Below are positions 26,501 to 62,359 of a DNA stretch of 64,000 nt, piece after piece. A program made the position numbers and the translations under genes. The DNA is taken from NCBI GenBank assembly GCA_001724265.1, contig MEDY01000082.1, positions 1-64,000 on the forward strand, in the 5' to 3' direction. The stretch is from Rhizaria sp. SCN 62-66 (Eukaryota). Position 1 is the first letter of the stretch. Every line of letters begins with the position of its first letter. Below the pieces are notes generated by a model. It ran no database searches. It was not told the origin of the DNA and was given only the letters and a program-made list of their open reading frames with translations.

Positions 26501-29500
26501 AGAGGCTAGGAACGGGGACCACGGTAAAGCAACGATGCCGTTGCCACCGTTAGCATTAGCGCTCGCAGTCGAGCTAGAGTGGGAGTGCGCGTGAGTGTCC
26601 TTGGTGATTTGTGGCAGCAGTGATAGCGCAGTGGAGCTACCGATGTTAGCGTGGGCGTTCATGGTGCTAAGAGATGAGAGCGGGAGCGCAGTCGTCGTCG
26701 TGTGCTGATAGTCAGTCAGCATGTCACTGACATTCAACAGAGGCCTCTCCTCGTCGTCCTCAGCTGCAGCTGCTGCTGCTGATGCGGTGGTAGCGGCGCC
26801 GTCGGTGGTTACCTCAAGAAGCCCCTCGTCATCCTCGTACTTATCGTAGTCAATTACAGCGATGCTATTGTCGACAGCGTCGCTATCAGACATCTTGACC
26901 GAAGAAGCGCTGTTGTTACTGACACGAGAGCTGTTGGGGTTTGCGCCCACAGCGGGGAAGAGCCAGTTAGCGATGGTGACGGCCTCGGCAACAGCAGCTG
27001 CCCCAGTCTCCGCCTCGGCCTCCGAGTCAGAGTGCGAGTCGTCGGACCCACTCGTGCTAGGACCCTTCTTGCTCTTGCTCTTGCTGGCGTTGTTGAGCTG
27101 CTCCAGCTGCTTCAGCAGCAGCGGCAGTTGCACGAGCCAGTTGTTGCGAACGCTGACGCCGACCTCGACCGCCGCCGCGACCGCTGCCGCGGCCTCAGCC
27201 TCGGCCGCCTCCGCAGCCGCGGTCGCCTGGTGCCGCAGCCGCCGCAGCTGCTGCTTCTGCGCCTTCTCAGCGTCCTTGTTCGCGCTAGAGCCGGTCGCGG
27301 CCGCGGCGGCCGCGGCGGAGGCCGCCTCAGCCTCAGTGACGAGAGCGGCCGCCGCGGTGACGGTTGTAACGGCAGCAACAGCCTTGGCCCTGGCCGCGCG
27401 CCTGGCCTGACGCTTCGCCGCCGTGGCCGCCGCGGCCGCGGCCGCCGTGGCCGCCGCAGTCGCAGCTTTGGCCGCGGCAGCGGCGGCGGAGGCGGCTTCG
27501 AGCCGCTGCGCACGGTCATACGGCGCGGTCCGCCAGTCTAAGGGGTAGTCGCTGTCATTTAAGGGGGCGGCAATGAGGCTCGCAGCGGGGGTGGCGTTGA
27601 GGTTTGCGATATAGCTGGAGACGGACGCAAGGAAGGCGGACGTCGCGGACTCGGCGGCCGCGGTGCTTGCGGTGGCGGAGCACAGCGGCTGCGGCAAAAG
27701 CACGGACAGCATATTGTCGGCATCCGGCGCGCTGGCTTGACTCGCGACCTTGTTAGCATTCGTGACCGTGAGCACGCCGACGTTAGACGAGTGAGTAGAG
27801 CTTGTGATTGCGCTGACGACGCTTGCTTTGCTGGCGTTGCGGGTGAATGCAAGGGCGGGGTGTAAGGGTGCGGGCATCACAGGCACTTCCGCGCCCTCAT
27901 TCGCATACAACGGCACGTAGAACGTCGACAGCGACAACAGCGGCCGCGACTGAGTCTCCAGCGCGCCTTGTTGACTCAGCCAAACCAGGGCCTCTCCAGC
28001 ATCCGCAGCGGCGGAAAGTGGAGGGGGGCGAAACACGTGACCCGCGAGGGCGAACTCGCCGCCGCTCACGGTCATCTGGCTGCTCACAGTCGCGGCAAAG
28101 CCACTGCTGCTGCTGCTGCTGCTGCGAACGTTCGCTCCCTCAGCACTCGTCGTAGTCACGAAATCAGCGCTGTTGCTGCGGTATGTAAGGGGACAAATGA
28201 GTGCGCCATTGCCAGTAGGCGCCCCCTTAGACTGGTTTAAGGGGTTGAAGGGCGTGCCGGTGAGCAAGCACGTCCAACCGAAGGGGGACATAGCCTCCGT
28301 GGTCACAAACACAAGGCTCTTTTCACTCGCACTCGCCTCGCTGCTGCTGCTGCTGCTCGCGGCCGCGGTAGTGCTAGCTGTGCTGGCAGTGGGGGCTTCG
28401 AATGCAAGGACGACGTTGTCCCTGATGTCGGCGACTGCGCTCATCCTAGCACTGGTAAATGCGCAATCGCCGTACTGTCCGTCTGAGACGTAAGTACCCT
28501 TCGACTCGAGCAGTGTAAGTGCCGCGGGAACGGCGCAGTCGCGCATGTAAGTAGCCGTGAGCGCAAACAAGCTCGCCACAGACTCGGACTCAGCGTTGTC
28601 TAAGCGGATGGTCAAGAGCTTGCTATCGTCTCCACTGTTGTTCTTGCCGTCATCAGACCCGGGCGACGCGAGGAACAGAGCAGACTGAACAAGGGATAGC
28701 AGCTCAGCACTGCTGGTGCCAGCAGCAGCGGCCGCAGTTTCAAACGCCAAAGTGAGTCCAGAGGTAAAGCTAGAGCTAGAATTAGCGGCGGAGTTGGAGT
28801 TTGTGTTGTTAAGAGCGATACCGGTGTTACCAAGCCTCAGACCGCCACCACTCGTGTGAGATGTGCTTAGAGATGTTTTGGCGAGGGCGTTAGTGTGCGT
28901 GATCGCAGCGAGTGCGAGTGCCAGCGCGAGCTTATAGGGCACGCCGACGACGCTGAGCGCTACAGCAGTGCTGTGGGCCGCGAGCATCAGCGCCCGCAGC
29001 TTGTACGCGACACACGCCTGGACAAACACGCTACTCTCATCGCTAAAGCCACGATCACTGCCACTTCCATTGACAGCATTCGCACTGGCGCTAGCGCTAG
29101 CGCTGGCACTGGAGGCGGCACTCGTTGCAGCGAGAGCAACCGCGTTGTTGTTGTTGTTAGCGTCGGCGTTCGCGTTGAAGTTACTGTTGTTGGCGATCGT
29201 GAGAGCGAGGTGACTCCAATCAGCGCTACTTAGACCCGTGTACGGGGCGGCGGTACTTAAATCATGCGCGTACGCGTCCCTGAGCACATTGACAGTAGAC
29301 AGCGGCACTTCGCCGCTCACAGTCACTCGGCTCCACTGGGTGACCGTGAGCACGGTGCCGTATCTAAGTACCCCACTAAGTACCAGCGGCGCGAGACGCG
29401 GGTGCAGCAGCAGCTTCGTCTGGTAACGGCCGTCAGTAAGCACGATGTCGTATCCCAAAGTTAAGTCGTGCAGCGGCTTGTTCACGGCCGAAGTTAAGCT

Positions 29501-30793
29501 GCTGCCGAGACCGAGAGGAGAGAGTGAGCTGAAATTGATGACGTCAGCGTTTGCCTTAGCGATGATACGGCTGACAACCTCATCTTGCTGCTCGTGCGCC
29601 TGGCTGCGACTGTTGTTGCGGCTATCAGCCCTGGCCGCGGCAGCCATGGCCGCCACGGAGGCCAGCAGTGGCTGAGAAAAGGGCGTTGTGTGTGCGGTGT
29701 TGCAGTTGTCGACGGTGGCGTACATCTGGGGACTCGCGAGGAACGCGTGGATCGACACCACTTGAAGCGTGATTCCACTTCCGCTATCATTACTACTGAC
29801 ACTAGCTGCGCTTGAAGAAGAAGACTCATTCGCATTCGCACTCGTACTCGCATTCGCACTCGCGCTCAAGCTCGCGTTGGTGTTGTTCGAGATTAAGCCG
29901 CTGTTGTTGATGCCATTGTTCAAAATCAAGCCGCCCATGCGGAGCAGATCACTGGCGAAAGCTCCCTCCTCGTTCGCGTTCTGCTGATCGCCGTCAGAGG
30001 CACGCGTACCGGCGGCACCCGCGGTGCCCGAGCTCGAACTACTGGAGCTACTCGTGGCCTGGCCCTGGCTCTGGGGCAGGCAGTAGGTCTGCAGCAGCAC
30101 GGGGACGCCGTTCGCGGTGAGCAGAGGCAGCGGCAGACACGGGGGGCCCTGGAGCAAGCCCGCCGGCACCGCAGGGGCCGCCGCCGTCGCCGCCGCCGCA
30201 GCAGCTGCAGCAGGAGCTGCAGTCGCTGCAGTCACAACCACACCAGCATCTGCACTAACATTCGCGGTGTTGCCGCTGCTATTGCCGTCAGCGGGGGGCG
30301 TGAGGAGAGTGTGGACGCTTTTGCGCAGCTGCAGCAGCTGCTCCGTCCGCAGCGGCGACTTCGTGCTGAGGTTCGCGCCCGCAGCAGCAGCAGCGTCGTC
30401 AGCTCTGCTGGCCGCCGTGGCTGTGGCGGTGGCGGGCGGTGTGATGTGGCTCAGCAGCCCCGTTGCCAGCCGCAGCAGGCAGCGGCGCGCGACGACCGGG
30501 CCGGCGCCCAGCTCCAGCAGCGTCTGCCAGTCACCGCTTCCCTGCACCGCAAAAGTGGCGTTGCTACTATGAGACGAGGCGGGGGCGGGGGCGAGGGTGG
30601 GCTGGGGGAGGTTGAGAGCGAGGGCGGTGGCCAGGAGCTTGGGGTTCTTCGTGAGGGTCGAGAACAACACGGAATGGTGCGGAGCGCGCGCTAAGAGCGA
30701 TGTCAGCGAGGACTCAGCAGGGGCTGCCGCCGCCGCAGCAGCAGCAGCGGAGGCGGAGGCAGCAGCGGACGCGTTGCTGGATCGTGAGGTCAT
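20533..30793 (-). CDS. RADX-like (RPA1-related) multi-OB-fold ssDNA-binding protein, ~3362 aa; exons 30793-24921 and 24748-20533
   Basis: OB-fold blocks in RADX order: YDIVLTDGRYQTKLLLHPRLAPLV; LIARVSAKSRVVRFG...FELLLTDNTGASIKATLWNSLVRDHYTRINIGDVIMIRNFKVK...EISLNP; VNVVGIVVRASKLERS...RWLCLAD. A phase-2 intron joins the two long ORFs in frame. Stop TAA. Confidence 0.78.
24749..24920 (-). other. Spliceosomal intron (172 nt)
   Basis: AT-rich island; GTACGT donor, ...ttttccattAG acceptor; join gives SNTR-IATLASIAAGDVVVLYNVKI. Confidence 0.9.
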
Positions 30794-32147
30794 GTTATTG
30801 CACAGTCGCACGATGCAGGCGCAGTGAGGTGCGCGTTAGGCGTTAAGCACGCGGTATGCGAGAGAGAAAGAGTGGTGTTTGCTTGGGCTGCTGCAGGATA
30901 GAACAAGCCAGATGCAGGGGCCGCCACTGGGGGTTGAGGTGGAAGTGCGGTCGTCTCGCTGCTCGGGAGAGAAGGATCGAACCTGAAGGTGCTCTGCACG
31001 AGAGGCATAAGCAAGATAAGAGAATTCAAGCAGGACAAGGACGTGTAAAAGCGTTATTCAGTACAATTTGCACGGGTTGCAAAGACAAATAGTGTAGGGG
31101 CATGGTGGGCAGCGCATGGAAAGCGAGCGAACGAATGGCGGGAAGGGCGCTTGGCGCCACAAGCAAGTCGTATCATTTCTCGTTCTAGTACAAAATTATG
31201 ACCATCAGTGAAAAAAATCAAAAACAATCCCAGCTAATATCAATCATTTCACACAATATATTTTAATTAAATATCTTAAGTCCAGAAATACACACCACAA
31301 GCGACATTTCTCCACACTTGACCCTAGCTTGACGACGACGAAGAACTAAAAACTGTATCGACAAGCTTTGGTCTGCGAGCTGGCTCGTTGGCGGCCGAAG
31401 AGGCTGACAAAGCAGGCTTCGAGGGAGGCAATGAGCTCGTCAGTTCACTATGTGCGCTTTTGTATACGAGAATATACCTTAGTTCTCTTCATGTTTGATT
31501 TTCAATTTGTGCGCAATGCTTATATTTGTGCTGCTGCGGCTGGACAAGGCAGTGCGTGCGAGTCGCGTCCTCCTAGGCGGCCATCGCGTCTTCAACACCA
31601 CATTTCGTCCTCAAACACGATACTTTTCGTTGTGAAACTTTTATTTATTGCTATTAATTTTAGTATATTTTACTATAATCTTGCAGTACCCGCTAAATCG
31701 CCCACATTCCTCTTGAATTCCCTCATTTTGCGTGTATCTCGTGCGTTTTGAAGACCGCTTTTATTGGCCGCGTCATCCAAGCTTTTCTTCGACGTTTGTA
31801 GCCGCGCTTCGTGACGTTCCCTTTTTCTTAGCACACCTCGCTGCCGCCTTTAGAGAGAGCTCCTCCGCGGTTTTGCTTCTCTCTGCGCACGCGTTGGCTG
31901 GCGACACGGTTTGCGTTACTCTTCACCCCTTTTAACTCACCTCAGCGTGGTTTTTGAGTGAACTTCGGCCACCATTTCGTCGCCGCTCCTCTCAAGCTCT
32001 TCCCCTCGCACCACCGCTAATCTTAACATCACCGCTAGCAGCGCCGCCAAGAACAACACCGGCAACGCGACTGACAACAGCGTCGGCACTTACCAAGCCC
32101 CTCCTCCCGTTCCACACAACAACAGCAACTCGACACTCAAGGAGGAG

Positions 32148-32170
32148 CAACAACAGCAGCAACAGCAGCA

Positions 32171-32210
<40 letters not shown>
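32148..32210 (+). repeat. (CAG/CAA)n microsatellite, poly-Gln in the frame continuous with the ABHD17-like gene
   Basis: About 20 consecutive CAR triplets. Confidence 0.85.
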
Positions 32211-32212
<2 letters not shown>

Positions 32213-32966
32213 CCGGTCCTTCGGCGACCCCCGCACCGCTTTCGACTTTGTTTTTGAACGGGGCGCCCCTAACGCTCCCACAACCACCAACAGCAACAAA
32301 GCTAATTCGAGCACTCCCCACAAAGCGCACACAGGCGTAAAGACAAAGCACCACAGCAAGTCTACTGTAAGCGAGAATCGGTCGATTCCAGCGAAGCACA
32401 CCGCCGCTACCGCCGCCGCCGCCGCCCTCGCTGCCGCCGCTGCTGACTCTGCCTCTGCCGTTGACTCGGAGTCTTCAGTGAGTGTAGGTGCTGCTGCCGC
32501 TGCCAAGGCTAGTTACGGTTCGTTGCGAGACTCGCCCAGCCAGCCCACTGCGTCCGGCGCCGCTTCCCCCGCTGAGGTTTACAGCTACAGCTACAGCCGC
32601 TGGGACAACACTGTTGTAAGCAACAACACTCAAGCCAAACACAAGGGCAAGAGCCACAACAATAGAGTCCCGAAAGCTGCTGCTCGTGGATCGAACGCGA
32701 AGAGCCACTCGAACTACACTCGTTTCGACGACGAAAGCGAGAACGTTACCCACAGTCCCGAAGACGACGACAACGGTAATCGCAACTCTTACGCCGACTT
32801 TGACGACAACAACGAGCACGACGATACTTTTAGCGACGAGTCTGACAACTTCCCTTTCCCTTCGGACCGTTTCCCCGCAACCCCTTACCCCGCCGTCACC
32901 CCCGCTCTAAGTGCCCCCTTACACACCGGCAGCTCTAGCACTGACGACGAAGAGAGTATCTTCCAA

Positions 32967-34625
32967 ATGTCGTCGTTCTGCAACTGTCTCGGCGTTGACT
33001 GGCTGCTCTGCTGCTTCGGCTGTCTCACGCTCGCGGGCTGCCGCCACCGCATCGCAGAGCGGCTTGTCTATTTCCCGCCCAAGCCCCCCATGTACATCGT
33101 TCTTAACAACAACAACAGCAACAGCAACAGCGCTGGCGCGAACGCTGAGTTGAACTCGAACGCCGCCAACGACAATGCAACCGTTAGCTGCTCCAACTCC
33201 AACGCGGTCGCCGGCCCTCAGACGTTTTGGTGCATCGATATCGATAACGACAACGAGCGCGTAGAGCCTATCAGCGAGCCCGAGGGCCGTTATGAGATGA
33301 TTCCGACGAGTATGGGCCACAAGATCGCGACTCTGTGGATCCCTTGCCACGCCGCCGTTGCCGAGGGCTGCAACCTCAACCCTAGCGGCAATAATAACAA
33401 CAACAACAGCAACGCGAATGGTGCGAGTGCGAGCGAGATTGTGAGTGCGCTTGTGACTGGCACTAAGGCCAGCGCTCAGGCTGAGGCTGAGGCGTCACTC
33501 GCCGCTGCCGCTGCCGCCGAGGACGAGAACGCCTTCGCCAACCTCACCGGTGGCAGCAACGCGGCTCCGAACGCGACCGGCAGCAAGGCGAGTAATAGCT
33601 TCTACAGCGAGGATTTCGTCAACAGCGCCAGCCCCACCACGTCCGCCAACGCCGCCGCTGCCGAGGCTGCCGCGGCCGCCGCTGCCGCCGCGACGCCGCC
33701 CCATCTGCGCCAACGCGCGCGCGTGACACTGCTGTTCAGCCACGGCAACGCCGCCGACCTCGGTGCGATGAAGCCGCAGCTGCTGCGTCTGGCGCGCCGA
33801 CTTAATGTCAACGTCTTCGCGTATGACTACAGCGGCTACGGGCTGAGCGAGGGCCGCGCGACCCCGCGCAACACGCTGGCCGACGCCGAGGCCGCGCTGC
33901 TATACTTGAAGGCCAAGTACCCGCGGTGGAGCGAAAAGGTCATCTGCTACGGCCAGTCGCTGGGCTCAGCGCCGAGCATCTACCTGGGCGCGACGCACAA
34001 GGACAAGGTCGCGGGCGTGGTAATCCACTCGGGCCTCATGTCCGCGCTGCGCTGCGTGCGGCCGAACCTCAACTCGACCTATTTCTTCGACATTTTTCCC
34101 AACGTCGATCTCGTCAAGTCTGTCGAGGCACCCTTGCTGGTGATTCATGGCGGCAAAGACCGGGACATCCCGCGCACACACGGTGAGATGCTCGTGGCCA
34201 ACGCACCGCGGCCATACAAGCCCTGGTTTGCGCCCAACGCCGGCCACAACAACGTCGAGCTCAAGTACAGCGCGCTCTATGAGGCCAAGCTGGACGAGTT
34301 CGTCGCCGACGTCGTTGCTGGCGCGGCCGCGACCCGCTTCACCAAGGCCGAGTGCGTGGCGGGCTTTGCGGACCCCGGCGCGATCGCGGTCGCCGCGGCG
34401 GCCGTGGCGGCGGCGGGCGGCCACAGCGTGCCAGGGGCCGTGGCAATGGCCACTGTGCCCACTGCTAATGCGCCTGCGAGCAACAGGACGAGTAACAGCG
34501 GCAGCAACAAGACCGGCGCTGCTGGCGCTGCTGGTGCTGGCGCTGGTGCTGCAGCTGCGACTGGCGCCGGCGCGAGCAGTAGTATTAACAGTAGTGATCA
34601 GAAGTATATTGTGACGGGCAAGTGA
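32967..34625 (+). CDS. ABHD17-like alpha/beta hydrolase (putative protein depalmitoylase), 552 aa from the first ATG; true 5' end may lie ~1 kb upstream
   Basis: Cys-rich N-terminus (FCNCLGVDWLLCCFGC...IAERLVYFPP), SHGNAADLG, YDYSGYG, nucleophile motif GQSLG, HGGKD (Asp) and GHN (His). Stop TGA. Confidence 0.9.
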   Translation: MSSFCNCLGVDWLLCCFGCLTLAGCRHRIAERLVYFPPKPPMYIVLNNNNSNSNSAGANAELNSNAANDNATVSCSNSNAVAGPQTFWCIDIDNDNERVEPISEPEGRYEMIPTSMGHKIATLWIPCHAAVAEGCNLNPSGNNNNNNSNANGASASEIVSALVTGTKASAQAEAEASLAAAAAAEDENAFANLTGGSNAAPNATGSKASNSFYSEDFVNSASPTTSANAAAAEAAAAAAAAATPPHLRQRARVTLLFSHGNAADLGAMKPQLLRLARRLNVNVFAYDYSGYGLSEGRATPRNTLADAEAALLYLKAKYPRWSEKVICYGQSLGSAPSIYLGATHKDKVAGVVIHSGLMSALRCVRPNLNSTYFFDIFPNVDLVKSVEAPLLVIHGGKDRDIPRTHGEMLVANAPRPYKPWFAPNAGHNNVELKYSALYEAKLDEFVADVVAGAAATRFTKAECVAGFADPGAIAVAAAAVAAAGGHSVPGAVAMATVPTANAPASNRTSNSGSNKTGAAGAAGAGAGAAAATGAGASSSINSSDQKYIVTGK

Positions 34626-40972: not shown

Positions 40973-43900
40973 ATGGACGTTTCCGCAGCCGCCAAGGCTC
41001 TCCAAGCCGATGTCTTGCGCCTCGTAACTCCACACATTAATCCCGAGACGCGCGAGTTTATCGCCAACCTGCGTCGCGCTGCGCGCGCGGTTGAGCTCGT
41101 GCCAGCCGATGTCATCGCCACCGCGCCCAGCGTGCTTGCGCTGCCGCTTGCGCCATCTCTCAGGGACCTCTCTTCGTCCAACGCCACTCTGCGCAGGGCT
41201 AACCTGGCGCGTTTGGCGGCGTATGCGAGCATCTCTGTGCACTTGCACGAGTACATTGACGACAGCTGCTGCCGTCACTACGGGCCAGATAACGACGAGG
41301 GCTGGACCGAGAAAGACGTTGACGGCCAAGGGGAGTTCGCGTCCCTATTCAAGTTGCCCTCTGATAAAAAGAAGGACGACACAGCCACCAGTGATGATAA
41401 GCCCAAAGCTGACGCTGCAGCGGAGGTTGCTTTGGACGACAGCGACGACGATTCCAAGAAGAAGGCGGACGACATTGACAACAACACCGAGGACGCCAAT
41501 GCGAAGGACGGCGAGTCAGGCGACGCCAACATCCCGGATCTCACCACAGACCTTGCATCAACACTCAAGCTTCGTGCCAACGCTGCCTTAGAGGATGGTA
41601 ACGTCACGGCTTACTCGCAGCTGATGTTCCGCCACTGCTTCACCACATGCTTCGAGCTCTATTTTCCCAATAACAGCAACGAACACACTGCCGCTGCTGG
41701 TCGCGGTGATTTATGCACCTGCGGTCTTAACTTCTGCGGCTCATCGTCGTCCTCTTCTTCGTCCGCAGCTCCGCGCCAGACCCTGTCTTCAGTGCTGCTG
41801 CCGCTGCTGTACAGCCCGTCGCGCACCGACGCCGCGCTGGCCGCGATTGCGCTGCACGGGGTCCTGCGCGCCGCGCCCACGCTCGACGCGCGCGCGGGGC
41901 TGGCCAACGGCGTTGCGCAGGAGCTGCTCAACGTGCTGGTCGCGGTTTCCGTGGCGGCGAACCCAATCCTGGTCGACCACGCCGCGCGCGCGCTGCGGTA
42001 CAGCCTCGAGAGCAGCACGTTTGCACATCTCACCATCTTCGCGTGGCAGAGTCCTGTGCAGCTCATGTTCGACATGATGTTGGAAGAGAACTGCACCCAG
42101 GGCGGGTTTGAGACTACGTACGTAGCGCCAGAGGGCGGGTACTACAAGGGCGCAGAGGACACTGGCGACGGCGCACGGTGGCGGTCACCGCGTGATGAGA
42201 AAATCCCGCTGTATCCGAGCTCGTTCGACAACTGCTTTGAGATCAAGCTTCTCGGGTGCATTAAGACTGCACTCACGACGATTCCGAGCTTTAGCGGCAC
42301 TGGCGGCGGCCGCGACAACGCGTCCGGCTCGTTCGCATCTTCTTCCGACACGTTTGCGTTCGACCTGTTCAGCAAGGCTGTCGGATCCTTGCTCAGCGTG
42401 GTGACGGAGTCGATTGAGTGCATTAGCTCGACCATTGAAATCATGCCCCTTTTGCTTGAGCAGGCCGCTATCAGTTCGCACTACGCCATGACGCGCTGTG
42501 CTGCGTTGTTTCTCGAGATCGCACCGCTGATTCCGCGTCTTTTCTACGCCCTCGTTGGCCCGGATGTGTACGCCTATGGGTCTGCGAAGGACGATGCGAA
42601 CTCCGCCGCAAGCGAGAGTAACAGTACCGCTGGTAAGAGCGCCGGCGCTGTGGCTCTGAGCAAAGAGAAGGCAACCGAGCGTCTGCGCCGCGTGACGAAG
42701 CTTATTCGCCAGCCGATGCGCGTTCTGAACAGCTATGCGCTCCACCTTGGCATGAGCATGCCCTACGAGACGCCCTACCATAATGACAGTCTCGCGCACG
42801 GTACACGGGACAACCGCGCGCCATGGACTGTGTTCCCGGACATGGAGCCCGCGTGGAGCGCGCGCGTCCAAGCCGCCGTGGCCGCGGTCAAGCGCGGGCT
42901 GCCGCGCGCGATCGCCGCGCAGCTGGTCGCGGTGCAGCGCGAGGCAACGCAGACGCTTGCGGACCACGAGGCCGCCGTCGCAGCGTATAACGAGCTCACG
43001 GTAAAACAGGTGCAGGCGCCGGCTGCGCAAAGCGACGATAATAACAACGGCGACAATGATCGCGAGACCGTGGGTGAGAAGGCTGCGATTTCTGGCGGCG
43101 ACAATGTCAAGGATGATGACGGTTTCTATCCGGTTGACGGTGATGGTGGTGACAATGCCAAGGATGATGACGATCTCTATCCAGCTGACGGTGATGAGGA
43201 TTATAATGATGGCGAACACTTTGGCAACAACAAAGATAACGACTTCTCCAGCGTCACCATCGCGCCTGATAAGGTCTCTGATGCCTACATCTTATCCATG
43301 ACAACTGACGCGACGAAAGAGGCCGCCGCGCCCCCAGCGAGCCCGCTGGTGCAACTCCTCTTTGAGACGGTGGGCGCCCTACTTGTCTCGTTCCTACCCA
43401 TCGCAGAACTTCTGCCGCGCACTGAGTATGGCTTCTTTGTCTACTATTACGTTCTCGGCGCTGCGATGGGACAAGCCTTCAAGGTCTCCACCTTGGATGG
43501 CGCAGACTGCTTTTTCACGCGCCGCGCCGCCGTGACGCGCGGCGCGCTGGCGCTGGTAACGCGCCTCGCGTCGCCTCAAATGCTGCACATGGGCACGACA
43601 GTTACGGCCAAGGCGTTGACTTTCGTGGACGCTATTGCGGCCAGCGGCGCTCTGTACCCGGCATTGCACGGCCTGCTTAAGGACGGCGACGCGCGCGCGC
43701 TGCGGGCGTGGACGCAGGGGGGCGGGCTGATGCACAAGGGACAGATGCGCACTACTGGAGCCTACTATCCTCCCACCAACGATGAAGAGGCGAGCGAAGG
43801 AACGGACGGGACAGAGGCGATGCTTGTCTCACTGCTCTCGTGTGAAAAGCTTCCAGCTAGCGCTAAGCAGAAGGAGAGTGGCAACATCAACAACAACGAC

Positions 43901-44356
43901 GGTGGCGGCGTGACCGGCGACGATCCGCCGCCGCATCCGACTGAGCTGCTGCGAACTCACGTGATTTGTCTCGTAAGGCGCGCAATCATGCACGACTTCT
44001 CGCCCAGCGCCGTGCCCGGGCTCGAGGCCTTGCCGCGGTTTGTGCGTTGCGGGCTCCTTAACGCGCTCGCTAACACGATGCCGACCATGCCCCCGCGCTT
44101 GCGGCGGGCGACAGCGGCGCTCGTGCCCAAAATCGCCGCGGGGATGCTTCTCTGGGACATGTACATCGATGAATTGACGCCCTACCAGTGGAAGTGGATG
44201 AAGCGGTACGTGGGTGACCCGCTGCTGGCGATGTGCAACGATGGGGACTTCAAGGCCCTTCTTAAGAAGCGGTGGACAAGTACATGGTCGAAAGCACGCC
44301 TCGAACTGGATATGTTCCTTTGTTCCTTTGTCAAAGTCGCTGAGATGATGAACTGA
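40973..44356 (+). CDS. Hypothetical protein, 1127 aa, probably helical-repeat (ARM/HEAT-like) with acidic loops
   Basis: ATG-to-TGA ORF with GC-rich third positions, bounded by AT-rich spacers; amphipathic helical pattern; no family motif recognised. Confidence 0.8.
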   Translation: MDVSAAAKALQADVLRLVTPHINPETREFIANLRRAARAVELVPADVIATAPSVLALPLAPSLRDLSSSNATLRRANLARLAAYASISVHLHEYIDDSCCRHYGPDNDEGWTEKDVDGQGEFASLFKLPSDKKKDDTATSDDKPKADAAAEVALDDSDDDSKKKADDIDNNTEDANAKDGESGDANIPDLTTDLASTLKLRANAALEDGNVTAYSQLMFRHCFTTCFELYFPNNSNEHTAAAGRGDLCTCGLNFCGSSSSSSSSAAPRQTLSSVLLPLLYSPSRTDAALAAIALHGVLRAAPTLDARAGLANGVAQELLNVLVAVSVAANPILVDHAARALRYSLESSTFAHLTIFAWQSPVQLMFDMMLEENCTQGGFETTYVAPEGGYYKGAEDTGDGARWRSPRDEKIPLYPSSFDNCFEIKLLGCIKTALTTIPSFSGTGGGRDNASGSFASSSDTFAFDLFSKAVGSLLSVVTESIECISSTIEIMPLLLEQAAISSHYAMTRCAALFLEIAPLIPRLFYALVGPDVYAYGSAKDDANSAASESNSTAGKSAGAVALSKEKATERLRRVTKLIRQPMRVLNSYALHLGMSMPYETPYHNDSLAHGTRDNRAPWTVFPDMEPAWSARVQAAVAAVKRGLPRAIAAQLVAVQREATQTLADHEAAVAAYNELTVKQVQAPAAQSDDNNNGDNDRETVGEKAAISGGDNVKDDDGFYPVDGDGGDNAKDDDDLYPADGDEDYNDGEHFGNNKDNDFSSVTIAPDKVSDAYILSMTTDATKEAAAPPASPLVQLLFETVGALLVSFLPIAELLPRTEYGFFVYYYVLGAAMGQAFKVSTLDGADCFFTRRAAVTRGALALVTRLASPQMLHMGTTVTAKALTFVDAIAASGALYPALHGLLKDGDARALRAWTQGGGLMHKGQMRTTGAYYPPTNDEEASEGTDGTEAMLVSLLSCEKLPASAKQKESGNINNNDGGGVTGDDPPPHPTELLRTHVICLVRRAIMHDFSPSAVPGLEALPRFVRCGLLNALANTMPTMPPRLRRATAALVPKIAAGMLLWDMYIDELTPYQWKWMKRYVGDPLLAMCNDGDFKALLKKRWTSTWSKARLELDMFLCSFVKVAEMMN
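43094..43195 (+). repeat. Imperfect 51-bp tandem duplication (2 copies) in coding sequence
   Basis: GGDNVKDDDGFYPVDGD / GGDNAKDDDDLYPADGD; copies start at 43094 and 43145. Confidence 0.85.
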
Positions 44357-45358
44357 ACTGGCTTGTGCGCCATTTATCGTTTAGGTATTGTTATTATTCT
44401 TTTTCACGCTCAACATCGCATGCTATGTATAGACTGAATGTTTAACGGTGATGTGTGTGTCACTTGAAGCGGGGACTTATTACGTTGCCACACGTACATA
44501 CATAGTCTTGCACTCCATCAAACAAGTATTATGCATAATTTCGTGTTTTTCTGACTAAATATGAGTATTTATTGTTTGTCTGTACTTAATTAAACTGTTG
44601 TATTCAAATCTGTGATCCCGTTATGCACACGTTGTGGAAAGCACATGCTATTTTCAAGCCATATCTCGACTAAATGAGAAGCTTCAAGAATAAAGATACT
44701 TTTTTTCGTGATATTCAATAGCTATATAAGTTATACTAAGTGATTGTTGCAAGCAGCAATCGTTTTAACACTACGTGCTGAATTTTATGCTGTGTTGCGA
44801 TGTGTTTCTTGCGGCTGCTCGTCGCGGCTTTGTGGTGGCCAAGCCACTCTCGGTGCCTCGGAAGGACGCAGAGACCTGACTGAACCAGAGAAGCACTGGA
44901 CGTGTATTTGTTTTCGCAATGTATAATATAAATATTATATGTTGTTGTGATGTCAAAGAATATAGATTTTAGTATTTTTGTGATTAACGGTCATGGCTTG
45001 GAGATAACCATACTTTTGTGGGTGCACGACAACAAATCGCTCAGGTCCTCTTACCTTCTCGGACATCGTCCTGCAAGCTAGCTATTCCCCTTCATACTCA
45101 CACCGCCTCACACTATGTTCTATTTAATGATATATTATACCCTGTTCCAGCGGATAAACCGCGTTATCCGTGGTTTATCTCCTCCAGCACCACACTTTAT
45201 CAACAGCAGCCCAGCAGGGTCCCCCCTCTGCTTCGCCCGTTATCCCTTCGCTGTAACCAAGCGGGTCTCTTACTTCTGCCGCTGCCCAGCAGCCACCGCG
45301 CTCCCCCGCTTGCGCGCTATCCTCACAGGAAGCGGCCCTGGGACTGCGTGCGGCTACA

Positions 45359-48300
45359 ATGAGCAGCACTCCGTCAGAGCAAGCCGGCTCTAGCTCGAGC
45401 TCTTGCTCTGGCTCTGACTACGACTCAATCTGCGCCTCAAGCTCCAGCTCTAGCTTTGATGCTGCGACTACCGCTGTTGCGGCGCCCGTGCTAGCAGGCC
45501 CCGTTCTTTTGTGTAGCGCAACAGCAGCAGCAACATCAGCAGCGTTAGCGTCAAGTGTCGACAACTATGACTCGAGCTTGAGCTCTCGCTCTTGTTTCAG
45601 TTCCAACTCTTATTCGATTATTCATACAGTGTCTCAAGGTCACAGCACCACATACTGCCCTGTCACTCCCTCCTGCTCCTCGGCCAACTGCGACAGTTCT
45701 ACTGCTGCTGCTGTTGCTGCTGCGGCTACCACGCTGGGGGCGCTGAGGCGCGACTGCGACCTCATCGTGAGGCGACTTGTGCCGTCAGCCGCTGACGCTG
45801 CCAAGAAGGCGTCGGCGTACGCTTTCATCACGAAGGTACGGTAATGTTCCGAAGCCTTAGCGAAATCAACTATATTCTGAACAGAATTCCGCACATGGAC
45901 GTTTTCGTCATCTCGACATCACCCCTGTAATCTGTAACGTTGTCTCGCAGTCTCAACAACTCCAACCTTTGGTTCCTTACTCGCCTCTTTATTCGCCTCT
46001 TTGTTGACAGCTGATAACGCGCGCCTACCCCAGCGCACTGCCTTTTCTCTTCGGCTCCACCCCGCTGCGGCTCTGTTTCGCCTCCTCAGACGTCGACGTG
46101 GGAGTCTGTCTCACCGCGGCCGACAGTAGGCACTTTTTCACACGGCTGAGCAGCATGTTGCGGATCTACGCAGACGGCTACGCTCGCGGCCGCCACAATA
46201 ACAACAATAACAACAACAGTAGTAGTGGTAACAGCAGTCATACGGGGACGAGAATGACGAGTCGCCGCAACAGCCACGGCAACATCAGCGCGAGCGCGAC
46301 TGCCAAGAGTGATAAGAGCAATCGGCGCAAGCACCTCGCGCAGGCGCAGTCGTAGAGTCAGAATCAGGGAGTTGCATTGATTCCGCCGCTGGTACCGATG
46401 TGCCGCTCGTGTGCTTACCCTGCTCTCCCGCACACGGGAGCTGCCAGTGCTAGGAGCGCAGCAACAGACGTGGCAACTGCTTCAGTGCAAGTGCAAGACG
46501 AGGGCCGGGGCCGGCTGAGCCTGGGCGTGAGGGCAGCGCTGCTCCTGCAGAATCAGGCTCTACGCATCGGTTACAGTCAAAGCATCAACAGCAACATGAG
46601 CAGCGGCGATCCCAACGGCAATAGCAGTCGTGACAAGAGCGCGTGCAGTGATATCTCGAGAGATGGCAGCGCTCCTGTGTGTGCTGAGGAGGAGCATAAG
46701 AACACTCTCCCTGCCTCAAGCAATTACAACACACAGGCCGATAACAAGAGTAATGTTTTGATTTCTACGAACGGCAGTGCTGTGGCTGGTTGCACTAGCT
46801 CTCGCGTTGTGTGCTGCCGTGTCTGTGGGAAGCCCTTAGACGGCCTCGCAGCCCTTACAACCACACGTAGAGCACCGACCAATAGCACGACCAGTGCAAG
46901 CGCCTTTGATAGCGCCGGCTCTGCTGACGAGGCAACGAACGACTCCACCACTAACATGAGCAGTAGCGTTTTCGCAAGCACACAGGCGAGTGACGCTGAC
47001 AAGAACAACAACAGCAATAACAGCAGCGCGAACGCGACGAGCACCACCGCGAATAGCGCGAATGGGACTGCTGCGAATACTGCGGCTGCGGTCGCTGCGC
47101 CTGGCACCAGCTCTGCCGCTGCCGCGAATGCCGACGCGTGGCTGCCGATCACCGCGCTCACCTTCACCCAGGTACGCATTTATTCATCAACTCAACGCTA
47201 TTGACATTTTCCCTGAACTTCGATGTCTGGTTTTATGTTCTCTTTATATATTCTGCATTCTCTCTAAACACTCTTCTCCATTTCTCTTTTCTTCCCCCTA
47301 AACGCATCTCAACACGCAGGCCGAAGTGCCCGTGCTCAAGTGCAACATCGCGGGCGTCTCGGTCGACATCACCACCAACACCGCTGCCGCCGTGGCCACC
47401 GCGCGCGCCACCGAAGCCCTCGCCACCGCCATCGGCCGCGGGTCTCTGCTCAAGCGCTCCGTGCTGCTCTGCAAGGCGTGGTGTGGTGACGAAGCCAAGG
47501 CGCTGGGCTCGTCGGTGTTCATGCTGTCTTCGTGTGCGCTCACGGTCATGGTGTTCTACGTCGTCAACTTCCACATGCGGCTAAACTTAGCGACGAATAC
47601 CAAGGGCCGCCTGAGCTTAAAGCAGCACGCGGGTGAGGGCCGCGGCGCAGACTCGGACTCCGGGCCACACGCGGGATCTGGCGGCAGTGGCGAGAGCGAG
47701 GGTGCGGATGTAAGTACCCCCTTAGACGTGCTGCTGGTGTTCCTGCGCGTGTTTGCCACGTTCGACTTCTCTCGCTTTGCGGTGACTGTCGCGGGGCCTG
47801 TGGGCGTGCGCAACCCAGCGCACCCGCCATTGACTGCCCCTTGCCCCCCACCCCCCCAGCCACTGCAGTCTCAGCCTTATCCTCCGTCTGAGTCCGGCGT
47901 ACCGTCGCGGTCGCAGCCTCCGTGTCTGTCTCAGTCTCAGTCGCAGTCTCCGCGGGTGAGCTTTGCGGGTCGGCTGGCTGCGGGGGCGCTCGCAGGAGTG
48001 GATAGTGTAGGTGCTGGTGGTACTTACAATAGTGTAAGTGCCGCTGCGCACCTATGCACTCGTTTCACGCTACCCTTGCCTGTGCAATCCACCGCCACTC
48101 CCACTGCCATTGCCACTGCCACTTCAACTGTTGCTGCTGCCACAGCTGCCGTGACTGAGAGCTGCACGCACAGCTCAAGCGGCGTTGGCGCGAGTCCCAG
48201 TGCGCGCGTCAGCGTTGCGGGTGCCGCTGTTGGAGTCGACGTCAACGTCACCGTCAACACTGACACCGAGACCGGCAGTGACGGCGAGAGCGAGAGCGCG

Positions 48301-51300
48301 AGCAATGCCGAGAGCGACAGCGAGGCCGTTGCGGCGATCGCGATCACGGCTGCCGGCGCGAGTGAGAGCGACGACGACGACGACGGTGCCACCAACACTG
48401 CGAACGCTGGCCATACGAGCCCTACACACAACAAGACGAAGGCTGCCGCGGCTGCGAGCGCTGCTACTGCCGCTCCTGCTGCCATCGCGACTGATGCAGC
48501 TGCTGCCGCTTTGGCCCCTGTCGCGACTGCACATGTGGCGACTGTGTACACTGCTAGTGCGCCCGTCTCGGTCGTCGCCGCGGCCCCTGTGGTGGTTGCG
48601 CCGACCGCCGTTGCGCTGGGCCTGCCCTACCCCACTCTGCCGCTCGCTCAGTACTACAAGAACAACAGTATTCACAGCAACAACAACAACTTCAACAGCA
48701 GCAGTCTAGGGAATGTTAGCGCGCGCGGCAGTTACGACGGGGACGGCGACTGTGATGACGAATGCCAGTGTAGCTGCGGCTGCTGCTCTGGCGCTGAGCC
48801 GGCGGCTTGTTTTCATTACAAGCCGCTGGTGCCGCTGAAGGCGTTGCAGGACATTCTGCTCTCGTCTAGTAATGCCACGGACAAGGACGTTGCTGACTTC
48901 AAGTCGATCGCCGCAGTCACTTCGCGCGGCAGCAACGCCAACGCACCTGATACGAGCTCAAGCTCTCGTGCTGTTGCTGATGTATTGGCGAATAGCACAA
49001 GTAACGCACCTATTGCAGTGAATACCTGCGAGCAAGAGAGTGAAGAAAAGTTGACGACCGCTAGTTCAAGCTCCAGCTCTAGTCAAGGTGATTGCACTTG
49101 TACGTGCTCTTCTTCTCGTCGCCAAGGCGGCTTGACATCCTCAACTGGCGGCTTATCTTTCGGCAACACGCTGTTCTGGCTGTCGGCCTCAAAGCCCCCG
49201 CTATTTCTCTCAACCACAAGCACGGCCAACGGCCACTCTGCTCACAGTCACTCTGCTCACGGTCACCCTACTCACGGTCACGGGCACGCTCACGGCCACT
49301 CTCACAGCCACACGCCGCCTGTGTTGTCGCGCGCTCCGACGCCCGTTCCCGGCGCAGTCTCCGCAACAACTGCAACAGCAACAGCAACAGTGGCTGCAAC
49401 TAACCCTGTTGCTGTGGGCGTGGCCCCGGGCGTGGCCACGGTTGAGATGACCGCTGTGCCCGCCGCAGTCGCTGCCGCGACAACGGCAGCGCCCACGGTC
49501 ACTAGCTCTGCAGCCACAGCCACTGCGCCTGCTGCAGCAGTGCCCGCAGTCGCAGTGACAATGCCCACGGTCACTTCTGCGCAGCCCACGGTCACGACCG
49601 CGCACTCGCCGCCGCTGCCCGTGCTGCCCACTGCGCTCACAGTCACCGACATCCTCGACTGCACGCGGAATGTAGGCCGCTCGGTCTGCGCTGCGGCGGC
49701 GGCGCGGCTGCAGGGCGCCTGTCGCCGCGCGCTTGCCACGATCGCTGTCGCGGTCACTGCGCAGAGCCGCATCAACAACCGCAGCGCTGACGCTATGCCC
49801 TCTAACGGTACTTACACCGGGTCTAAGGGTACTTCCACCGGGTCTACTTGCGGTTGGGGCGCTGCGAGCGCTGTGGCCGCTGCGCTGGCTCTGGAGCCGT
49901 TGCCGACCGACTGCCCCGTTGCGCTGGCGTCGCTGCAAAACGAGGTGGCGACCGTCACGCTCCAACAGCAACAGCAACGCATGAACAACTACAACAACAA
50001 CAACGCGGCAAGCGTTCGTGACGGTAATGGGAGTGAGTGGCTGTTGCCGCTGTTGTTTCCTGTGCTGTCACGGGCGCTTTTCCCGTCCTCGTTCAGCTAC
50101 AGCAGCAGTCTCGCCAACGCAAAAGGCGCGATTGCTGCAACCAGTGCGACCGAGACGGGTTGTGTGAGTAGTTTGCGCCCGCCGTCGTGCAAGTACCCCC
50201 TTAGCCGCGAGTGCAAGTGCTCCTGGTGTAAGGGCTCTGCCGATGTTGACTTGACTGGTGACTCGCGCAAAATCGACAAGATTTATTCTTTGGTCAAGGC
50301 CTACACTGCTGCAACGACGGCAGCAGCGGCCGCGGCGGCAGCGGCCGACAGCGGTGGCAACGGTGTTCGCGGTGGCGGTGGCGGGAACATTAGCCGCGGC
50401 GGCTCTCCGTTCCTCAATAGCACAACCAACAATCCGAAGCAGTATCACACGGACGGCGGCCATTACCGCGGCAGCAATGCCCACAGTCACTACCGCGGCG
50501 GCGGCGGTGGCGCCCACGGTCACTCTGCTCACGGCCACGGTCACGTCCACGGCCACCGTCACGGCTACAATAATCACCAGTCCCAGCAGTACCCGCAGCA
50601 GCATTACTACCAGCAGCAGCAACAGCAGCAGCACGGTGCCTCTGTCCCGGCGGGCATGGCGACCCACACGCCGTCTCAGTCCCCGTCGCCGTCGCCGTCG
50701 CACTCGTACGCGCACTTGCACTCACTGTCGCATCTGCAGTCGCTGGGGCAGCAGGCCCAGGGCCAGGAGCACAGGCAGCAGCAACAGCAGCAACAACAGC
50801 AGGGGTATTATAGGGCGCATACGCCGCCGCTGCACTCGCAGTCGAGCTATAACCACGGCAATAATAGCGGCGAAGGCAATCAGTGCCAGTACCAGCAGCA
50901 GCAATATGGTGGTAATCAGCAGCAATCTGGTAACAACAGCAACGGCGGTTATTATGGCAACCATAGCGCTGGCGGCAAGCAGCAGCAGGGCTGGGGCAGG
51001 TCCTATTCGAACTCCTCGCTGTCACGGCCGCAGTCGCCTTCTTTGCACACGGCCAACGCCCACAACCAGCACGGCGGCAAACAGCAGGGGCAGCAGCAGC
51101 AGCAGTCGCGGTCGCGTCCGCCGTCTCGGTCGCAGACGCCCTCGTTGCCGCAGCAACAGCAGCAGCAACACTCTGGTAACGTGAACAACAGCTCAGAGCA
51201 GATGCAAAGCAACAGCAACAACGCCAAGAGTGCTCCTGCGAACAACAACAAGCCTGCTGTTGACGCTGCATCCAGCGCCGCTGCTAGCGGCAACAGCAGC

Positions 51301-52425
51301 AGCGAGCAGTCTCATCAGCAGCAGCCGCCGCAGCCGCTGACGTACGCCGAGCGCATCAGGCGCGCGGGCGCCACCCTCAGCGCGTTCACGGCAGGGGTTC
51401 AAGCTGCCTCCGCCGCGGCCGCTGCTGCTTCTGCAGCCGCTGCCGCCGCAGCCGCCGCCGCTGCTGCGAGCAACACCGGCACGTCTGCCGTCAGTGCTGG
51501 CACTGTAGCGAGTGCGAGTGGCGGCGGCGGCGGCGGCGGCGTCGGTTTGCCGCCGCCGTCGCCGTCGCCGTCGGTGCTGCACAAGAGCGGCGGCGGCAGC
51601 AGCGCGATGACGCAAGCGCAGCGGCTGCTGCTGGCGCACAAAGAGCGCTCGGACAAGCTCGCGCTAACTTTTGCGTCGAACAACAGCAGCAGCAAGGCCA
51701 ACGCGAGCCTGAGTGCCAAGACGGGTGCTCCGGGCGCTGCCGTGACCGCTGCTGCGGGGAATAATAAGGCCGCTTCTGCTGGTGTCAATACCATGGCAGC
51801 TAATCTAACTGCTGGTGCTCCTCCCAGGTCTCCGGTCAAGCCGAGCAATACAAGCGCCTATAGCGGTGTCGCTGGTAGCAATGCTGCTGGCTCTGGCTCT
51901 AGCTCCGGCTTTGTCGCCGTTAATGCGGGCGCAATCGGCAGCTGGCGCAGTAACGCCGCCAGCCCTAGCACGAGCGCTAGAGCGAATGCGAGTGCTAGTG
52001 CTAACGCTACGAAGCATTCTGAGATCTCTACCGCGAGCACTCCTGTCGCAACGGCCGCGACTGCTGAGGCTGCCGCTAAGGGTGATTCCGCCACGACTAA
52101 CTCTAGTGGCGACATCGACGATGACGACGACGATGACGACGACGGCAGGCCCGTTGACATCACCGACATCAGCGGCAGCAGCCGCGATGTGGGCCGCGCC
52201 GCCCGCGTCTTCTCGGCGGCGGCGCTTACGAGGGCACTCGCGGCGGCGACCGGCATGAGTTCGCCGCACTTGCTCGCCGCGGGCAATCACTCTCACAACA
52301 ACAGCAACAATAACAGCAACAACAACAGTAACGCGAATGCCAATGCCCACGCGGGCTCTGGCGCGGCTGCGACAGACGCTGGCGCGAATAGTGACGCGAA
52401 CGCGAGTCTTAACAAAACAGGCTAA
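45359..52425 (+). CDS. Non-canonical poly(A) polymerase/terminal nucleotidyltransferase-family protein (Pol-beta NTase plus PAP/OAS1 substrate-binding-type domain), ~2247 aa; exons 45359-45835, 46011-47171, 47320-52425; one in-frame TAG at 46353-46355
   Basis: FGSTPLRLCFASSDVDV (GS + DxD), AEVPVLKC...VDIT (third Asp), LLKRSVLLCKAWC, PLDVLLVFLRVFATFDF...GPV, DILDCTRNVGRSV. Two phase-0 introns. Stop TAA. Confidence 0.85.
45836..46010 (+). other. Spliceosomal intron (175 nt)
   Basis: GTACGG donor, ...ttgttgacAG acceptor, phase 0. Confidence 0.82.
47172..47319 (+). other. Spliceosomal intron (148 nt)
   Basis: GTACGC donor, T/C-rich body, CAG acceptor; join gives TFTQ-AEVPVLKC. Confidence 0.9.
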
Positions 52426-52899: not shown

Positions 52900-53982
52900 T
52901 CAATCGCTTTCACTGCCACTGTCACTGTCGTCCTCAGCCTTTGCCTCAGCCTTGTTGGTATCATCATCGACACCAGGCTCAGTTGCAATCCCAGCAGCAG
53001 CGGCGGCAGCAGCGGCAGCGGCGGCAGCGCGTTTCTTGGCCTTATTAGCTTTTTTTTTCGCGCTCTTTTTGGCCCTCTTGGCGGCCTCCGCTTCGGCCTC
53101 CGCCTCCGACCGGCTCACGGTCACCGTGGTCACCGTCCCGTCGCTGGCCGTCACCGTCTTGGTGGTTGTCGTCGAGGCGGGGAGTGCGATCGACACGATG
53201 GCGGGCGCCTTGAGCGGTTTAGCGGGCATGGGCAGGCAGGCGAGCTCGCTGGCGAGGTCGGCAAACGAGGCGCGGGCGCGCTTGGGGGCGCCGGAGCCAA
53301 ACAAGCCAGAGCCAGAGCCGGAGCCAGAGCTGGAGCGAGATGACGAGGCGAAGTAACTGCCACTCGCATTCGCGATGCTGTTGACGCTCATAGATGCGCT
53401 GTTGCTGCTGTGAGTGGCGCGGGACGGCGTGGGGGCAGACGGGCGCGCGGCGACGGTGGCGGTGCGGCTGTCTTCGTCGTCGCTGTCGCTGTCGCCGCTA
53501 GCACCGTACTTGGACGAGCCGGAGCTTGACTTGAAGCTGCTGCCGCCACTGCTCTTCTTACCGCCGGTCTTGCCGCCCACGCTCGCGCTGCCGGCGGCGG
53601 AGATCGTTGGAATAGAGTCGAGGTGCGCCTCGTTGACCGCGTCCTCCTTGGCCTCGCGTTGTTTCGCGCGTTGCCCGCCCGTGATATGAGCGAGAACGTT
53701 CTTGTCCCCGGCGCGCGAGAGCGAGAAGCCGCGCTCGGCGTCGCGCGCAGCTTCCGCGGCCGCCGCGGCCTCCGCCTGGCTGCTCTGTCGCGTCGCGCCA
53801 ACGCCGAGGCGCGAGGAGCGGTGGACGGTCGCGCTGACGCTCTTGCTCGCGTCGACGACGTTAGCGGCGTTGGCAGCGGTGGAGAGGGAGGAGGTGCGGG
53901 AGTCATCGTCGGAGTCGTCGTCGCCGAAGAACGAGTTGACCATCGACGAGATGGCGTTGCGTTTGGAGTTGACGAACGACAT
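52900..53982 (-). CDS. Hypothetical low-complexity protein, 360 aa (Ser/Ala-rich, basic C-terminal cluster)
   Basis: ATG-to-TGA ORF with coding-like GC3; RLGVGA segment; KRAKKSAKKKANKAKKR possible nuclear/nucleolar signal. Confidence 0.75.
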   Translation of the reverse strand: MSFVNSKRNAISSMVNSFFGDDDSDDDSRTSSLSTAANAANVVDASKSVSATVHRSSRLGVGATRQSSQAEAAAAAEAARDAERGFSLSRAGDKNVLAHITGGQRAKQREAKEDAVNEAHLDSIPTISAAGSASVGGKTGGKKSSGGSSFKSSSGSSKYGASGDSDSDDEDSRTATVAARPSAPTPSRATHSSNSASMSVNSIANASGSYFASSSRSSSGSGSGSGLFGSGAPKRARASFADLASELACLPMPAKPLKAPAIVSIALPASTTTTKTVTASDGTVTTVTVSRSEAEAEAEAAKRAKKSAKKKANKAKKRAAAAAAAAAAAAGIATEPGVDDDTNKAEAKAEDDSDSGSESD

Positions 53983-61675: not shown

Positions 61676-62359
61676 TTAGTGTATGACGCCGACTAAGCGA
61701 TGGCGCTTGAGGTAGCTGAGGATTCCTGAGCCACATGGCACTGAGCGCCGTCTTGCTGGATGACGTAGCTGCTCAGACCGGGCCCAGTGAGTCGCTCTAA
61801 CACCTCGATGAAAACAGGGCTGTCGAAGCTCCCCTCGTAGACCATGGGAGTGATTCGCCGCGTCTTGCAGATGCCCCACCATACCGCGACCGCGCCACCG
61901 TAGTCGCTGACCTCCATGACCGGCCGCTCGCCAATACGTTAGTGAACGGCAGCGCCACGGCGGCTGATCCTGAAGACCTTCTCGTCGGTTAATATGGTCT
62001 TGCTCCAGTTGTGAGTGCTGTACTTCTTGGCCAAGGGCCTTCTTGGACTGACCGAAACGGATCTTCGCGCGCTTGAGCGCAGTGCGGAAGGTGGCGACGG
62101 AGAAGTTAAGGCTCATCTCTCTCATCACAATCTCGTACTTGTCGGCGTTCTCCAAGTTGTTCTTACGGAACCCAATAGCAGCGAACTCCGCCAGACGCTT
62201 GTCACGGATGAGGTGCTTTCGACCTTGACCCCGCATGGGACGACGATCTATCACAGGCTGGCACGGGCGGCTGTAGCGCTTGACAGTACTCTTGGAGACT
62301 TTAAGTTGGCGCGCGATGCGACAATTAATTATACCCACCATGAAACCGATTTGTTTCAA
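61676..62359 (-). mobile_element. Degenerate Tc1/mariner-superfamily transposase fragment
   Basis: HTH-like IARQLKVSKSTVKRY; after a frameshift near 62035, WSKTILTDEKVF (first Asp), VAVWWGI and QQDGAQCH (second Asp). In-frame TAA at 61939-61941; SPDLNPIE region absent; no terminal inverted repeats found. Confidence 0.85.

Follow-up and report, generated by a model that had tools for sequence, protein, structure and literature searches.

In the 64,000-nt stretch of contig MEDY01000082.1 analysed here (Rhizaria sp. SCN 62-66, assembly GCA_001724265.1, positions 1 to 64,000 of the forward strand; called the window below), the codon UAG probably specifies an amino acid and not the end of a gene, and UAA and UGA would be the codons that terminate. 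That TAG is translated at all, whichever residue it stands for, is well supported for this window. Six in-frame TAGs carry the argument, five of them in a reading frame for an importin-like karyopherin and a RecQ helicase, and the sixth, at 46353, in a gene for a Cid1/TUTase-like nucleotidyltransferase, where it is likely to be a rare but otherwise ordinary sense codon within a palm-domain insert that is coding and of low complexity. The homologue columns point to a polar residue and favour Glu somewhat over Gln.

In-frame TAG codons and gene ends in the window

The 16,268 codons of the genes in the window contain six in-frame TAGs and not a single in-frame TAA or TGA; in the off-frames, counted for 11 of the reading frames over 13,852 codons, the stops number 392 and 823. 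The TAGs are real, lie in frame and inside coding blocks, and are all away from the gene ends. Twelve gene ends could be defined, seven with TAA, five with TGA and none with TAG, and no TAG was found near the 3' end of any window gene as a candidate for its true terminator. TAG makes up about 24% of the stop-type trinucleotides in the window, and the probability that none of 12 ends is TAG is about 0.04, from what is a small sample of ends. The seven TAA ends against no TAG end are more striking because codons ending in G are preferred in frame, where they are favoured 2-4 fold over those ending in A (GAG/GAA 404/107, CAG/CAA 299/135). The original prediction, made from the letters of this DNA, had taken TAG for an amino acid codon and not a terminator, and these counts, together with the five TAGs that align with homologues, support it well. 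UAG is used at a frequency of about 0.4 per 1000 codons. Moreover, among the long genes the GC content at third codon positions (GC3) is lowest in the TAG-bearing importin (0.585) and RecQ (0.536) parts, as against 0.65-0.80 elsewhere, which agrees with a codon that is rare, not preferred and tolerated in genes of weak bias.

Five of the TAGs (19159-19161, 18391-18393, 17158-17160, 17137-17139 and 15640-15642) lie in one frame of 1858 codons on the reverse strand (13969-19545), which ends with TAA. Its residues 1 to about 1020 are an importin-13/transportin-3-like karyopherin, and residues from about 1120 to 1858 are a RecQ helicase part, in which Pfam finds DEAD, Helicase_C and RecQ_Zn_bind, and whose translation retains intact RecQ helicase motifs and, in the zinc-binding region, the C-terminal Cys residues. 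The closest karyopherin orthologue, a metagenome protein of 1096 residues (P0126), aligns over its whole length in BLASTP (348/1054 identities, E 2e-148), and in tblastn it gives a single high-scoring segment pair that keeps to one frame between 19545 and 16627; the 1858 codons are free of frameshifts. Each of the five TAGs pairs with exactly one residue in ungapped homology blocks, four in the importin part and one in the RecQ part. The last of these stands in the context ...LLRGG*YALVYMSPEK..., and the GG*YALVY that the original prediction had quoted is thus present in the sequence. In public protein collections the importin is split into pieces of 128, 228, 407 and 413 residues, because standard-code gene calling cuts at TAG, and the TAG-bounded pieces of the open reading frame (ORF) recur as separate predicted proteins in 4-7 contigs of public assemblies.

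At the junction of the importin and RecQ parts (about 16180-16490) there is no TAA, TGA or TAG, which makes the two parts a single ORF if TAG is sense, and the orthologue P0126 is a stand-alone protein of 1096 residues. The junction could be a true fusion, could hide a small intron or a terminal exon that was missed, or could join two genes with an unseen boundary.

The TAG at 46353 and the putative nucleotidyltransferase gene

The sixth TAG (46353-46355, +) is codon 115 of exon 2 of the nucleotidyltransferase gene and stands in GCG CAG GCG CAG TCG TAG AGT CAG AAT CAG. This ten-codon tract (46338-46367, +), read directly from the sequence as AQ AQ S* SQ NQ, has TAG in the third of its five x-Q slots, just as the original prediction had described it (AQAQS*SQNQ), and its first three hexamers, GCGCAG, GCGCAG and TCGTAG, resemble decayed copies of one unit. 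The similar Q-rich tracts that had been claimed for other genes do have a counterpart, SQSQSQS, which is located in exon 3 of this same gene. Taken between TAA or TGA stops, the frame of the TAG (in which codon starts are multiples of 3) stays open between 46008 and 47204; in its 398 codons this TAG is the single stop, and the stops in the three frames within exon 2 number 1, 11 and 28. A codon model trained on other genes gives the TAG frame +0.48 bits/codon upstream and +0.56 bits/codon downstream of the TAG, and the other frames -0.7 to -0.8. Two other studies yielded DNA contigs that carry the identical TAG (X3 record 2, covering 45922-48343, and X4 record 8, covering 44400-47437), with 0 differing letters, and given these two independent studies an assembly slip at 46353 is dismissed. 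Among the assembled contigs of the RNA-labelled runs X8 and X5 there is none that spans 46353.

A three-exon model of the gene was built from three-frame translation together with reading of the sequence, all parts being on the forward strand. Exon 1 (45359-45835; 159 codons, +0.33 bits/codon) has an ATG start and ends in ...AYAFITK. It is followed by putative intron 1 (45836-46010; 175 nt, phase 0, -0.70 bits/codon), which runs from GTACGG through a pyrimidine tract to GACAG (ctcgcctctttattcgcctctttgttGACAG). Exon 2 (46011-47171; 387 codons), with the opening LITRAYPSALPFLFGSTPLRLCFASSDVDVGVCL, is translated as LITRAYPSALPFLFGS...SDVDVGVCL and then passes into the low-complexity insert of about 330 codons that contains the TAG. 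Putative intron 2 (47172-47319; 148 nt, phase 0, -0.44 bits/codon) runs in the same manner from GTACGC through a pyrimidine tract to CGCAG, and exon 3 (47320-52425; 1701 codons and TAA), with the opening AEVPVLKCNIAGVSVDITTN, comprises a PAP-associated-like region and then a long low-complexity tail. We infer both introns from their donors, their codon scores and their GC content, which is 0.45 and 0.38, respectively, versus 0.58-0.64 in the exons. GTACG is common to the two donors, and both 3' ends have a pyrimidine tract and CAG; with 45 and 47 occurrences on the window's two strands, GTACG is unspecific when taken alone. The original prediction had seen no splice signals nearby; the gene does have two GTACG...AG introns, and neither of them holds the TAG.

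Reading of the sequence finds hG[GS] as FGS (46050-46058) and DxD as DVD (46089-46097), as in a Pol-beta-type palm, and the third catalytic Asp as GAC at 47365-47367, in VSVDIT, within the start of exon 3 (AEVPVLKCNIAGVSVDIT). The three elements occur in the expected order, which we take to be the catalytic pattern of the Pol-beta-type nucleotidyltransferases, and the TAG lies between the first two and the third, in agreement with the original prediction. In a Pfam search, residues 4-47 of exon 2 matched PF22600 (MTPAP-like_central) with E 0.0029 and 18.1 bits, which is under the curated cut-off of 27; no family rose above its curated cut-off for exon 1, the exon 2 ORF or the exon 3 start, the exons being searched singly, and phmmer against PDB with the exon 3 start returned low-complexity matches only. 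For residues 1-187 of exon 3 the language-model (Atlas) look-alikes are the PAP_assoc/MTPAP-like/TUT7 clusters, with a score of 0.95, and all of the 10 best named ones share the family. Taken together, these features suggest an intact three-exon Cid1/TUTase-like nucleotidyltransferase gene. It shares with the Cid1/TUT7/MTPAP-type non-canonical poly(A)/(U) polymerases the order of hG[GS], DxD and third Asp, the weak PF22600 match and the look-alikes of exon 3, but differs from them in that its palm is split by the low-complexity insert of about 330 residues and by an intron.

Two points speak against this picture of the gene. The assignment is made from motifs, a Pfam match below threshold and language-model look-alikes, and a contig from the polyA RNA run X8 (47101-47471) crosses putative intron 2 unspliced, which could reflect carry-over of DNA, unspliced RNA or intron retention, or a wrong intron model. 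Among the contigs of the RNA runs no splice junctions are listed for introns 1 and 2; joints in the sequence runs with sides of 18-22 letters at repeats were disregarded.

Which amino acid TAG would encode

The four TAGs of the importin part were compared with those 32 of the 61 karyopherin homologues found that exceed 850 residues in length (the other 29 are shorter and were not used), and that of the RecQ part with 119 homologues. At importin position X129 the column has E in 21 of the 32 sequences, a gap in 5, S in 3, and A, D and R in 1 each, and P0126 has E. At X385 the residues are K (8), E (6), R (5), T, A and D (3 each) and others (4), with T in P0126; at X796 they are E (9), A (4), P, D and S (3 each) and others (10), with P in P0126; and at X803 they are C (22) and others (10), with V in P0126. 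The RecQ column, X1302, has K in 41, Q in 28, R in 15, E in 14, L in 10, D in 4, S in 3, N in 2, and A and G in 1 each, and in two Paulinella proteins the residues are E and D. Q is found in 0 of 32 sequences at each of the four importin columns, and L in 1/32, 0, 0 and 0 of them and in 10/119 at the RecQ column. Summed over the five sites, the profile log-odds are 3.77 bits for E, 1.17 for K, 1.11 for S, 0.61 for Q, -8.37 for L and -9.57 for W. These columns indicate that the encoded residue is polar, disfavour Leu, Trp and Tyr, and support Glu somewhat better than Gln. The lead of Glu over Gln, about 3 bits, comes mostly from one conserved column (X129), on which the choice of amino acid mainly hangs, and the column X803, with Cys in 22/32, fits neither Glu nor Gln. 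UAG as Leu, which is the meaning in the rhizarian exLh, was considered and rejected, at -8.4 bits of summed log-odds for L.

The strongest rival is that UAG stands for Gln, in a code like translation table 15 as in Iotanema spirale, and that at 46353 a CAG has turned into TAG synonymously. This is what the original prediction had proposed, and we consider it rather unlikely, though better than any of the other rivals. It gains from the TAG occupying a Q slot in an xQ tract of five units with NNN-CAG neighbours, from Q being the second commonest residue in the RecQ column (28/119), and from Gln being the commonest outcome of nuclear UAG/UAA reassignment according to PMC5304391. The enrichment of Gln at the orthologue columns of the TAGs that would go with it was, however, not observed at the five alignable sites of the window: Q is absent from the four importin columns, the conserved X129 is dominated by E and has E in the closest orthologue, E and D stand in the two nearest RecQ homologues of eukaryotes, and the summed log-odds are those given above, 0.61 bits for Q against 3.77 for E. 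The xQ tract itself reveals the ancestral codon and not today's meaning. The TAG at 46353 is probably the product of a CAG>TAG mutation in a GCGCAG repeat that was decaying, because it lies in an xQ tract with neighbouring NNN-CAG units; the insert is an unconstrained loop, and therefore a CAG ancestry tells little about what TAG means at present. The CAG>TAG transition of the original prediction is thus retained as the probable origin of the codon, and the support for a present Gln meaning that it was to lend is not.

With five alignable sites, the columns lower the chance of Gln without removing it. On the premise that TAG is sense, and weighing the columns against the prior that Gln is the commonest outcome, we would place about half of the expectation on Glu, a clearly smaller share on Gln and the smallest on all other residues together. 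A bolder reading, to which we would give somewhat less than an even chance, is a code in which UAG means Glu and UAA and UGA are both still terminators, at an early stage at which UAG is very rare and is restricted to weakly biased genes of a possibly cercozoan wastewater eukaryote. In the literature searched, no nuclear code was found that has UAG as Glu together with UAA and UGA as stops.

Rival readings: nonsense mutations, introns and read-through

Several observations count against TAG being sense, and some of them would suit the standard code, under which the TAGs are nonsense mutations, the importin/RecQ and nucleotidyltransferase genes are young pseudogenes or null alleles, and the lack of TAG ends is due to chance. 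The conclusion is drawn from one 64-kb window with six TAGs, in which ARAGORN found 0 tRNA genes and in which there is no eRF1 gene; an Rfam search of the window gave no matches either. Moreover, one reading frame holds five of the six TAGs, a clustering for which P is about 1e-4 under even usage, and a decaying locus would also yield such a pattern. TAG is in addition the likeliest single new stop in these genes, making up 46-49% of the new stops under random nonsense mutation, and the sample of 12 terminators is small. Even with that share, however, the probability that six of six new stops are TAG is about 0.01, and the two loci, of 1858 and 2247 codons, show no frameshift and no TAA or TGA. 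The intact motifs and Cys residues of the RecQ part with its three Pfam domains speak against a pseudogene, none of the 12 terminators is TAG, and the same TAGs are fixed across several assemblies and studies. We therefore regard nonsense mutation as improbable and TAG as probably a sense codon in both loci.

A known read-through context is UAG-CARYYA. That the TAG at 46353 is absent as such from the mRNA, owing to an unrecognised intron or to RNA editing, or that it is a true stop with programmed read-through, is the least probable of the alternatives, for although the gene does carry introns, the TAG lies within a non-conserved insert and TCGTAG is conceivable as a 3' splice site, a scan of the sequence finds no GTACG donor between 45836 and 47172, the sequence 5' of the TAG is purine-rich and without a pyrimidine tract, GC and codon scores are exon-like on both sides of it (+0.75 bits/codon in the 66 codons directly 5'), a hypothetical donor at 46219 would disrupt the frame, the ungapped homology blocks around the other five TAGs leave no room for an intron, and none of the six TAGs has a known read-through context downstream (they are followed by T, G, A, T, T and A).

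The organism and other genes of the window

The window is eukaryotic, as it has long frames on both strands, cis-introns and families found in eukaryotes only (DHHC, RabGAP-TBC, karyopherin and an ABHD17-like hydrolase), and its DNA recurs in wastewater and bioreactor metagenome runs (X1-X4); the organism is a GC-rich uncultured eukaryote. The nearest named homologues of the RecQ and karyopherin parts, at 25-45% identity, are from Paulinella (twice) and Lotharella, both Cercozoa, and from a mucoralean fungus, and this gives only a hint of a cercozoan affinity. A trypanosomatid origin was rejected in view of strand switches every few genes and of the cis-introns. The protein search with RecQ returned the window's own piece and otherwise homologues of at most 51% identity, and that with the importin one orthologue at 33-37% identity. 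Among the matches listed in a scan of metagenome contigs with the importin/RecQ frame there were two distant RecQ loci, at 31-33% identity; a scan of genome contigs with P0124 and a scan of viral contigs with P0004 gave no matches. The ABHD17-like hydrolase (32967-34625, +) has metagenome relatives at 71%, 60%, 55% and 53% identity (P0191-P0194) and named ones in animals and plants at about 45%. With relatives at 53-71%, related organisms are therefore present in public metagenomes.

Very long tracts of poly-Q, N, A, S, T and His-Gly occur in most proteins of the window, and a length of 1,100-2,200 residues is typical. For 7 of the 13 long frames Pfam gave no family at E <= 0.001 (226-4320, 20533-24387, 24857-30793, 40973-44356, 47521-52425, 52900-53982 and 61676-62341). 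In addition, two open stretches without ATG, 4321-6240 (-) and 31962-32966 (+), of about 640 and 335 codons, respectively, lie upstream of the first ATG; both are of low complexity and rich in Q, A, T, S and N, and the true starts of these genes are probably in upstream exons. The TAG at 6241-6243, which follows ...TTGACAGTGTAG, is possibly no codon but a 3' splice site.

Proposed mechanism and comparison with known variant codes

If TAG is sense, UAG but not UAA would be read by a tRNA bearing anticodon CUA, which could have been derived from tRNA-Glu(CUC) or tRNA-Gln(CUG) by one change in the anticodon, and eRF1 would have a weakened or lost recognition of UAG. This scheme of a tRNA(CUA) and a changed eRF1 is drawn from what is established for such codes (PMC5304391). 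Changes of UAG only, with UAA kept as a stop, are described for very few nuclear lineages, namely Iotanema, exLh and some phyllopharyngean ciliates (PMC5304391, PMC11687900). The organism studied here probably joins these lineages, with Glu somewhat better supported than Gln as the residue. Cases of this kind bear on why UAA and UAG nearly always change jointly, and a further non-ciliate and GC-rich lineage with rare UAG, if true, would show an early phase of the change from stop to sense; should Glu be confirmed, a new code table would be added. In practice, standard-code gene callers truncate the genes of this organism at each TAG.

The nuclear code of Iotanema spirale (Fornicata), as presented in PMC5304391, has UAG as Gln and UAA and UGA as stops, and UAG is scarce, with 96 UAG sites. 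The window resembles it in that UAG alone would be reassigned in a non-ciliate protist, that UAA and UGA would terminate and that UAG is scarce, but the lineage is another one, as the nearest named homologues here are weakly cercozoan, Gln is unsupported by the columns, and there are 5 alignable sites as compared with 96. In the rhizarian exLh (Sainouroidea), UAG is Leu, with 384 in-frame UAGs in 71 genes and 56 UAA, 15 UGA and no UAG terminators, and UAG is used unevenly among gene classes (PMC5304391). The change of UAG only, the UAA and UGA ends and the uneven use of UAG are the same here, and the supergroup is possibly the same too; in contrast to exLh, Leu is strongly disfavoured in the window, and UAG is far rarer, with 6 in 16,268 codons versus about 5 per gene. 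In phyllopharyngean ciliates, UAG is Leu or Gln and UAA is the preferred stop, and suppressor tRNA genes are reported for two genomes in PMC11687900. These, as the present case would be, are independent reassignments of UAG only that were found by mining metagenome-derived genomes; the difference is that they concern ciliates, in two of whose genomes the suppressor tRNA genes have been found.

If TAG in the window is Glu, the change from stop to Glu for UAG would be shared with codes in which UAA has changed as well, such as those of the peritrich ciliates and of Oligohymenophorea sp. PL0344, where UAG is Glu. The same is seen in Blastocrithidia nonstop, for which PMC12153298 gives UAR as Glu and UGA as Trp. 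The window would differ from all of these codes in the fate of UAA, which is reassigned in them and which ends 7 of the 12 genes here.

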